64,000 nt of DNA from Eledone cirrhosa. Taxonomy: Eukaryota. A program made the translations under genes and the position numbers. The notes under the pieces are model-generated. The model ran no database searches and was not told the DNA's origin. It worked only from the letters and a program-made list of their open reading frames with translations. Positions within the stretch are counted from its first letter, which is position 1. Every line of letters starts with the position of its first letter. Location of the stretch: NCBI GenBank assembly GCA_964016885.1, contig OZ024740.1:293384001-293448000 (forward strand), written 5' to 3'. Below, piece by piece: positions 20,702 to 21,185 of this stretch.

Positions 20702-20707
<6 letters not shown>

Positions 20708-20811
20708 TTCTACAGGACTAGAACTGTTTCATTCTTTAGAAATCATCAGGAATCCTGAGATTCCTGATGATTTCTAAAGAATGAAACAGTTCTAGTCCTG
20801 TAGAATCTCAT
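20702..20811. repeat. Perfect 53-bp inverted repeat made of two back-to-back HHRs
   Basis: 20702-20754 is the exact reverse complement of 20759-20811, with a 4-nt spacer. Confidence 0.92.
20757..20809 (+). ncRNA. Type I hammerhead ribozyme
   Basis: gagattc-CTGATGA-tttc(taaa)gaat-GAAA-cag(ttctagtc)ctGTA-gaatctc. Perfect 7-bp stem I. Confidence 0.88.
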
Positions 20812-21185
20812 CTATATTAAAACTTTTATACTCTGCTATGTATTGAGTACCTTACTTACTGTGGTTACCTCCGATTCAGCCCGGAATAACTTACCTTATA
20901 TATATATATATTTATTTATTTATTAAAGTATTTGCTCAAGGGTTCTTATATATTTGATATATATTTGATATATATTTGTCCTTATCGAGCCCTCTTTGGA
21001 TCTTAGTCTTCACATTTATTATTATTACTATATATGTATGAATTTGTTTTGCAAGGTTTTTGATATGAAATCATCGTGTATCGAAACAAATATTGCTATA
21101 AAAGAAATAGGATTTCGCTTCAAGCATAGCTTTATACAAATATATATATACATGCAAATATATATATACAAGTCATACAAATATA

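Follow-up and report, generated by a model that had tools for sequence, protein, structure and literature searches.

Palindromic Penelope-like element stubs in Eledone cirrhosa: fold-back points and their link to a likely transcription start

A palindromic stub and its surroundings

The window analysed here is a stretch of 64,000 nucleotides from Eledone cirrhosa (assembly GCA_964016885.1, contig OZ024740.1), and at 20702-20811 it holds an exact inverted repeat of 53 bp, with arms at 20702-20754 and 20759-20811 and a spacer of 4 nt at 20755-20758. The palindrome is the 5'-inverted stub of one family among the Penelope-like elements (PLEs), here called family 1, inserted in (TA)n; a search for a target-site duplication found (TA)n on either flank. 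Its predicted fold energy is -90.1 kcal/mol (z -20.3), which none of 200 shuffles equalled. The first-pass annotation had described arms that make up essentially the whole hammerhead and an inversion centre at the 5' edge of helix I. Coordinates, folding and a descriptor scan agree with the former, and the centre of the inversion at 20702-20811 indeed lies at that edge. In family 1 numbering, +1 is the A at 20758 and the predicted cut falls just after +45. The whole stub (20702-20897) is an ordinary, short insertion and likely a dead end. The copies of families 1, 2 and 4 in the window and their parts are as follows.

20653..20703, no strand: left-flanking (TA)n tract and target; its last 2 bases are common to the inverted arm
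20702..20754, reverse strand: inverted short arm, element +54 to +2, which includes a complete minimal hammerhead motif (core 20749-20743)
20755..20758, no strand: junction, made up of 3 bases that the native upstream sequence lacks, followed by the A of native +1
20758..20897, forward strand: direct long arm, PLE pseudo-LTR +1 to +140, beginning at the inferred transcription start
20758..20808, forward strand: minimal type I hammerhead motif, core 20764-20770, predicted cut 20802/20803
Core 20749-20743, reverse strand: second hammerhead motif, in the inverted arm, predicted cut 20711/20710
20898..20911, no strand: right-flanking (TA)n tract and target
12620..12745, reverse strand: family 1 copy, non-inverted, truncated about 22 nt upstream of +1
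43527..43620, forward strand: family 1 copy, degenerate fold-back near +5..+8, read by eye
53516..53595, forward strand: family 1 copy, fold-back near +3/+6, short inverted arm
6957..7157, forward strand: stub of family 2 that folds back at about 7019, its own +1, within helix II of the parent hammerhead, arms without the CUGA core
4455..4518, forward strand: diverged family 2 relative (compare L218, L255), fold-back near the matching site
25128..25425, forward strand: stub of family 4, folding some 35-40 nt upstream of its hammerhead core (about 25202)

Other repeats are found around these copies. A MITE-like element with 62-bp terminal inverted repeats flanking 127 bp lies at 21229-21479. 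Next to it, at 21480-23864 on the reverse strand, is a decayed family 4 PLE with reverse transcriptase and endonuclease fragments, and within its ORF there is a 64-bp fold-back (22688-22751) away from promoter and ribozyme. Palindromes of other families were seen at 3900-4163, 8671-8793, 32033-32173, 38334-38633 and 53471-53759, the fourth of which is family 4-like and folded downstream of its hammerhead, and hammerhead-like cores of other families at 5804, 13778, 19110, 31057 and 51566. A tRNA-like SINE head and copies of a non-LTR element that carry a PHD-like finger besides RT-like ORFs occupy 29037-29100, 33116-37673 and 62453-63995. Exon-like ORFs of a host gene lie at 45905-48685 on the forward strand, with a match to the TLC domain (PF03798) at 48182-48682.

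In the 3.0-Gb genome, a 24-mer from +110..+133 of family 1 has 8,731 exact matches. Long copies run upstream into the 3' region of the element, and in L014/L031 a tandem junction places this 3' region upstream of the hammerhead and the ORF start downstream, the partial tandem arrangement of a pseudo-LTR. Past +140, L031 contains ORF pieces with RT-like and GIY-YIG-like motifs, and the Cys-rich linker ahead of GIY-YIG presumably resembles that of the Neptune clade. Look-alikes in the Atlas pointed to GIY-YIG with scores of 0.95 (PF01541 on 18-27% of members) and more weakly to RVT_1 at 0.87, which is to be read as a lead only. Pfam gave no match on five PLE fragments, nor on P0001, and the homologue search gave a single match, an unnamed Octopus vulgaris protein (44%). 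Judged from its motifs and the Atlas leads, family 1 appears to be an endonuclease-positive PLE, and the adjacent inverted 5'-truncated copy with optional tail that belongs to PLEs is present in 54 of 89 distinct copies. One copy (L011) has 5' sequence resembling family 4 joined straight onto the start of family 1 via a short common motif, just upstream of the hammerhead, possibly by a template switch between families. On the antisense strand, motifs resembling the 5' splice-site consensus occur at the 3' end of the element (20849-20858 and 20889-20897), with a similar one near the end of family 2.

The descriptor scan found a type I hammerhead on each strand of the palindrome. In the forward motif, helix I pairs 20758-63 with 20803-08, GAAA lies at 20783-86, helix II is weak with U.U at 10.1/11.1, and the loop of helix III is quasi-palindromic. 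No Rfam hammerhead model matched at the gathering score in the window or at E<=10 in 20600-21000, the only matches being sub-threshold hairpin ones. The descriptor match, with core and helices I-III in place, and a helix I pair that changes in a compensatory way (A-U in 118 and C-G in 12 of 139 family 1 arms) together argue for a hammerhead. According to the available text of PMC4209133, the minimal type I hammerheads of PLE pseudo-LTRs likewise have the CUGANGA/GAAA/UH core and a short helix III, but the usual pair G10.1-C11.1, whereas family 1 has U.U there in 138/139 arms, collected with a search pattern that favoured this sequence. Pairing of the helix III loops between two copies is predicted at -14.8 vs -2.4 kcal/mol.

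That both strands encode a ribozyme, as the first-pass annotation had put it, holds for the sequence, but a transcript over both arms is predicted to form a perfect hairpin instead (-90 kcal/mol, compared to only -4.2 kcal/mol for the hammerhead fold). Lacking a TATA box upstream and being expected to fold to a dead hairpin, the stub is likely to be inert as a ribozyme. A dimeric ('double') hammerhead was rejected, as the motifs are reverse complements instead of same-sense units with a common helix III and a 53-bp hairpin is predicted; the dimer in the accessible part of PMC4209133 is same-sense, and the sense and antisense motifs here cannot form it. A non-LTR retrozyme, which the available text of 10.64898/2026.07.22.740005 defines by head-to-tail tandem units with one hammerhead apiece, was also rejected, since the locus is a single head-to-head stub with no head-to-tail tandem units each carrying a hammerhead.

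Positions of the fold-back points

Fold-back points were counted in samples anchored at the 3' side, all from the start of one contig only. For family 1 these were the first 90 of 100 hits of the 3' 24-mer on contig C1, a choice blind to 5' structure, and for families 2 and 4 they were 70 of the first 100 hits each. An earlier BLAST set, biased because its query began at the fold, was used for anatomy only. In family 1, L118 was dropped as a duplicate of L116, and L069 and L091, which had spurious AT-rich inverted hits, were kept as non-inverted; the family 2 count omits the diverged L218 and L255.

Each of the 54 inverted family 1 copies was placed by whichever arm end is more 5'. Relative to the helix I edge, this end falls at -6..+10 in 42, farther upstream in 8 and downstream in 4. 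Mapped against the hammerhead, the breakpoints are therefore clustered and not uniform, in line with the first-pass annotation, and so are the two other inverted members that it had placed at about the same site (43530-43600, 53516-53586), degenerate copies in which the fold, read by eye, is near +3..+8. The mirror halves of the palindromes meet about 45 bases upstream of the predicted cut, and direct arms ending in the vicinity of the cut (+43..+49) were seen in 4/90. Genome-wide, (TA)n-joined ends of family 1 on the reverse strand number 372 at -5..+5 vs 13 at +42..+51. The sequence of the fold-back junction varies from copy to copy, indicating separate events, and the outer ends are at about +60, +67 or +73 for short arms (+54 in the stub at 20702) and at +136/+140 for long arms.

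A TATA box at -29..-33 is present in 41/41 long family 1 arms, across subfamilies, and this is the spacing expected of an RNA polymerase II core promoter, making a transcription start at the fold point likely. At +1, family 1 has both the TATA about 30 nt upstream and an initiator-like start, and in family 2 these motifs are weaker. Based on the motifs and the copy ends, it is likely that the fold point is the 5' end of the element RNA, that is, its transcription start. Subfamilies with the TATA at -30 and at -32 both peak at +2, with no shift seen. An extra, cap-like G occurs in 7/37 ends at -4..+1 vs 1/19 at +3..+5 (p 0.24, counted by eye) and, in a pooled comparison, in 7/37 vs 2/42 (p 0.07); this signal is confounded in family 1 by helix I and tiny inverted arms, and as a signature of a cap it is only suggestive. 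The Penelope promoter of D. virilis is internal and TATA-less as far as the available text of PMC2377424 goes. Families 1 and 2 have similar priming distances, about +60 and about +140, and are otherwise unalike. They also have an 11-nt motif in common at +82/+83 (20840-20850 and 7102-7112, with one base different in the family 2 copy of the window), which is a candidate protein-binding or promoter element.

Family 2 (6957-7157; 26,582 exact hits) is the discriminating case. In 7 long copies, the fold site is an initiator-like TTAGT/TCAGT that lies within helix II, 47-49 nt downstream of the start of the hammerhead, in which helix II is long and the core a variant. Five long copies (L165, L167, L185, L223 and L249) combine A at core position 8, opposite C3 or U3, with a helix II that is about 60 nt long and would contain the putative promoter. 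Inversion was found in 53/68 copies counted, with the fold in -6..+10 in 45 of the 53 and farther upstream in 0. Target-joined ends on the reverse strand number, genome-wide, 11 at -16..-7 (an upstream anchor that covers the commoner subfamily only), 653 at -5..+5 and 77 at +40..+49, which is a 59-fold drop immediately upstream of the pile-up. The short arm ends at +61 in 50/55. A TATA-like motif at -29/-31 is non-canonical and overlaps helix II, so its conservation could reflect pairing. There is also a minor peak at the family 2 cut: 16 of 62 distinct listed places start exactly at +42, compared to 3 at +41 and 4 at +43 (by eye), and 16/25 ends in +40..+45 begin exactly after the predicted cut (binomial p ~2e-7). 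This suggests that some cleaved family 2 RNA is copied, the alternative being a stop next to helix III. The view that families invert inside or around their hammerhead (6957-7079, 4455-4518) is right in that the fold, read by eye, lies inside, but the arms are without the CUGA core and are not ribozymes.

In family 4, the inversion at 25128-25245, read by eye, turns some 35-40 nt upstream of the core. Of 70 sampled copies, 8 end near the AAAATGGCG motif, which we take to be YY1-like, 45-55 nt upstream of the core, and about 30 run far upstream; both were counted by eye, as automatic fold detection worked poorly there. The pile-up of family 4 at this promoter-like motif is weak.

Origin of the two arms

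The two arms of a copy carry matching variants, the loop II variant being identical in 27/27 scorable family 1 copies (about 0.40 expected by chance for each) and the haplotype in 26/31 family 2 copies, and both arms therefore come from one template. The short arm reaches at least 8 nt farther 5' than the long arm in 18/54 copies of family 1 and 13/53 of family 2, the long arm being the farther one in 6 and 7, respectively, so the short arm is not simply a copy of the long one. Family 2 junctions are overlapping or blunt in 30/40. Upstream and downstream subfamily types are linked, with 1/36 clearly discordant. This test, which is blind to jumps within one molecule, thus gave no indication that jumps from one molecule to another are frequent.

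We consider it likely, with a probability of about 0.68, that two target-primed cDNAs are made on one uncut PLE RNA, that both extend to its 5' end (the likely transcription start) and that they are then joined. This model is the simplest because of the common template, the farther-reaching short arm and the fixed +61 end. Here +1 would be a capped RNA polymerase II start, and the GIY-YIG endonuclease would nick both (TA)n strands. One target end would prime near +136/+140 and the other near +60..+73 (+54 at the 20702 stub), both cDNAs would run to the RNA 5' end, and the two cDNA 3' ends would join head to head through short microhomology or with a few added bases. In an in vitro PLE system (PMC11167929, available text), both strands are extended, there are two internal start sites, and hammerhead cleavage is dispensable.

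Alternatively, a single cDNA, or an antisense RNA, could fold on itself at the fold point and copy itself, and self-priming on antisense RNA has been proposed for PLE inversions by Arkhipova et al. 2013 (PMC3846280, accessible part). Such self-copying would account for the variants common to both arms and for the many overlapping or blunt family 2 junctions (30/40). However, it predicts that the long arm is always farther 5', contrary to the 18/54 and 13/53 copies in which the short arm is farther, and it predicts neither the short-arm end fixed at +61 (50/55) nor loop-less joins nor non-inverted copies ending at the same place. A later deletion could rescue it, and we regard it as unlikely.

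It is similarly improbable that the palindromic stubs are failed jumps in a process resembling retroviral strong-stop synthesis, in which reverse transcription would start about 60 and about 140 nt off the cap, run to the 5' end and then jump to the RNA 3' end. The hammerhead of the downstream repeat would cut 41-45 nt past the matching start and leave a short terminal redundancy, which, if this were true, would be comparable to the retroviral R region. As the family 2 start is inside the ribozyme, only the 3' copy would fold and cut.

The first-pass annotation had suggested that hammerhead cleavage, or a fold stalling the reverse transcriptase, sets the fold-back point. The clustering and the PLE identity stand, and so do the coincidence of the family 1 fold with the helix I 5' edge, the minor family 2 peak exactly after the cut (16/25 in +40..+45, p ~2e-7) and helix I complementarity, which can act as microhomology at some family 1 junctions (L073). 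Cleavage or stalling as the main cause does not: the main peak is 41-45 nt off the cut and 8.5 to 29 times the cut-site window, and the pile-up is positioned differently against the ribozyme in each family (at the helix I edge, inside helix II, or, in the weak family 4 case, upstream). A stalled reverse transcriptase would be expected to stop on entering helix I, at about +52, not at its far 5' strand. In addition, Naiad PLEs, without canonical hammerheads, typically have inverted 5' copies too (PMC8557442), and hammerhead mutants still insert in vitro (PMC11167929), as stated in the available text of both. The ribozyme as the main cause of the fold-back is largely refuted and very unlikely, and its link to the fold is probably for the most part a positional coincidence.

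Equally doubtful is a reading of the site as a 3' splice site, or other processing site of a longer RNA, and not as a transcription start. A T-rich tract with CAG/TAG at -1..+2 is present in families 1 and 2, and a D. virilis PLE intron ends at the helix I 5' end (PMC4209133, available text), but native bases are kept to -3/-4 with no constant upstream exon. No donor-like motif was found in -250..-20 in 6/6 family 1 copies tested, no donor was common to 5 family 2 copies (2 had a hit), and the samples are without a pile-up at branch-point distance.

An assembly or library artefact is hardly credible: among the contig pieces listed none spans the 20702-20811 junction, but junctions vary and yet cluster, outer ends are fixed, (TA)n flanks are present, the pattern recurs in 54 + 53 sampled copies, and variant fold-back joints are present in contigs of three public runs from one sample.

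Relation to known elements and meaning

L1 twin priming starts internally on the RNA from the second target strand and gives a 5' inversion with a microhomology join. Internal second-strand priming and microhomology are likewise part of the two-cDNA model, but the L1 segments are different parts of the RNA, whereas here both arms are the same 5'-terminal stretch and form a palindrome.

Inverted 5' copies, palindromes, tails, pseudo-LTR promoters and hammerheads of PLEs have already been published (PMC11167929, PMC8557442, PMC3846280, PMC2377424, PMC6765202 and PMC4209133, each in its accessible text). The endonuclease-positive PLEs of PMC3846280 and PMC8557442, as far as their available text describes them, have tails, a head-to-head inverted copy beside the pseudo-LTR, 5' palindromes, unequal outer ends, (TA)n targeting and TATA/initiator-like motifs in the pseudo-LTR, as do the elements here. 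Compared to these accounts, the tails are longer here (about 65-80 nt vs 30-40), and for two families the fold point has been narrowed down to about 16 nt and connected with a putative start. Similarly, both target strands of the Poseidon PLE of Anolis are extended in vitro on an uncleaved RNA template, and two internal start sites match insertion ends (Frangieh et al. 2024, PMC11167929, available text). The Poseidon start sites are inside the ORF and close together, in contrast to those here, which are upstream of the ORF, and the accessible part of that paper contains no mapping of cDNA end points or of inversion formation. In the searchable literature, which excludes reviews in subscription journals, no text was found that connects the fold point with a transcription start.

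The origin of the inverted 5' ends and pseudo-LTRs of PLEs and the role of the hammerhead have been posed as an open question (available text of PMC8557442, PMC11167929 and PMC2377424). With thousands of young stubs in the genome, the stub ends map the formation of PLE 5' ends to the nucleotide, and in the stub population the probable priming sites are fixed, as is the end point at the likely start, and there is evidence for an origin of both arms from one RNA. The small peak at the predicted cut may hint at cleavage in vivo. The stub population thus provides a testable model of PLE 5'-end formation and a clue to how PLEs likely copy themselves.
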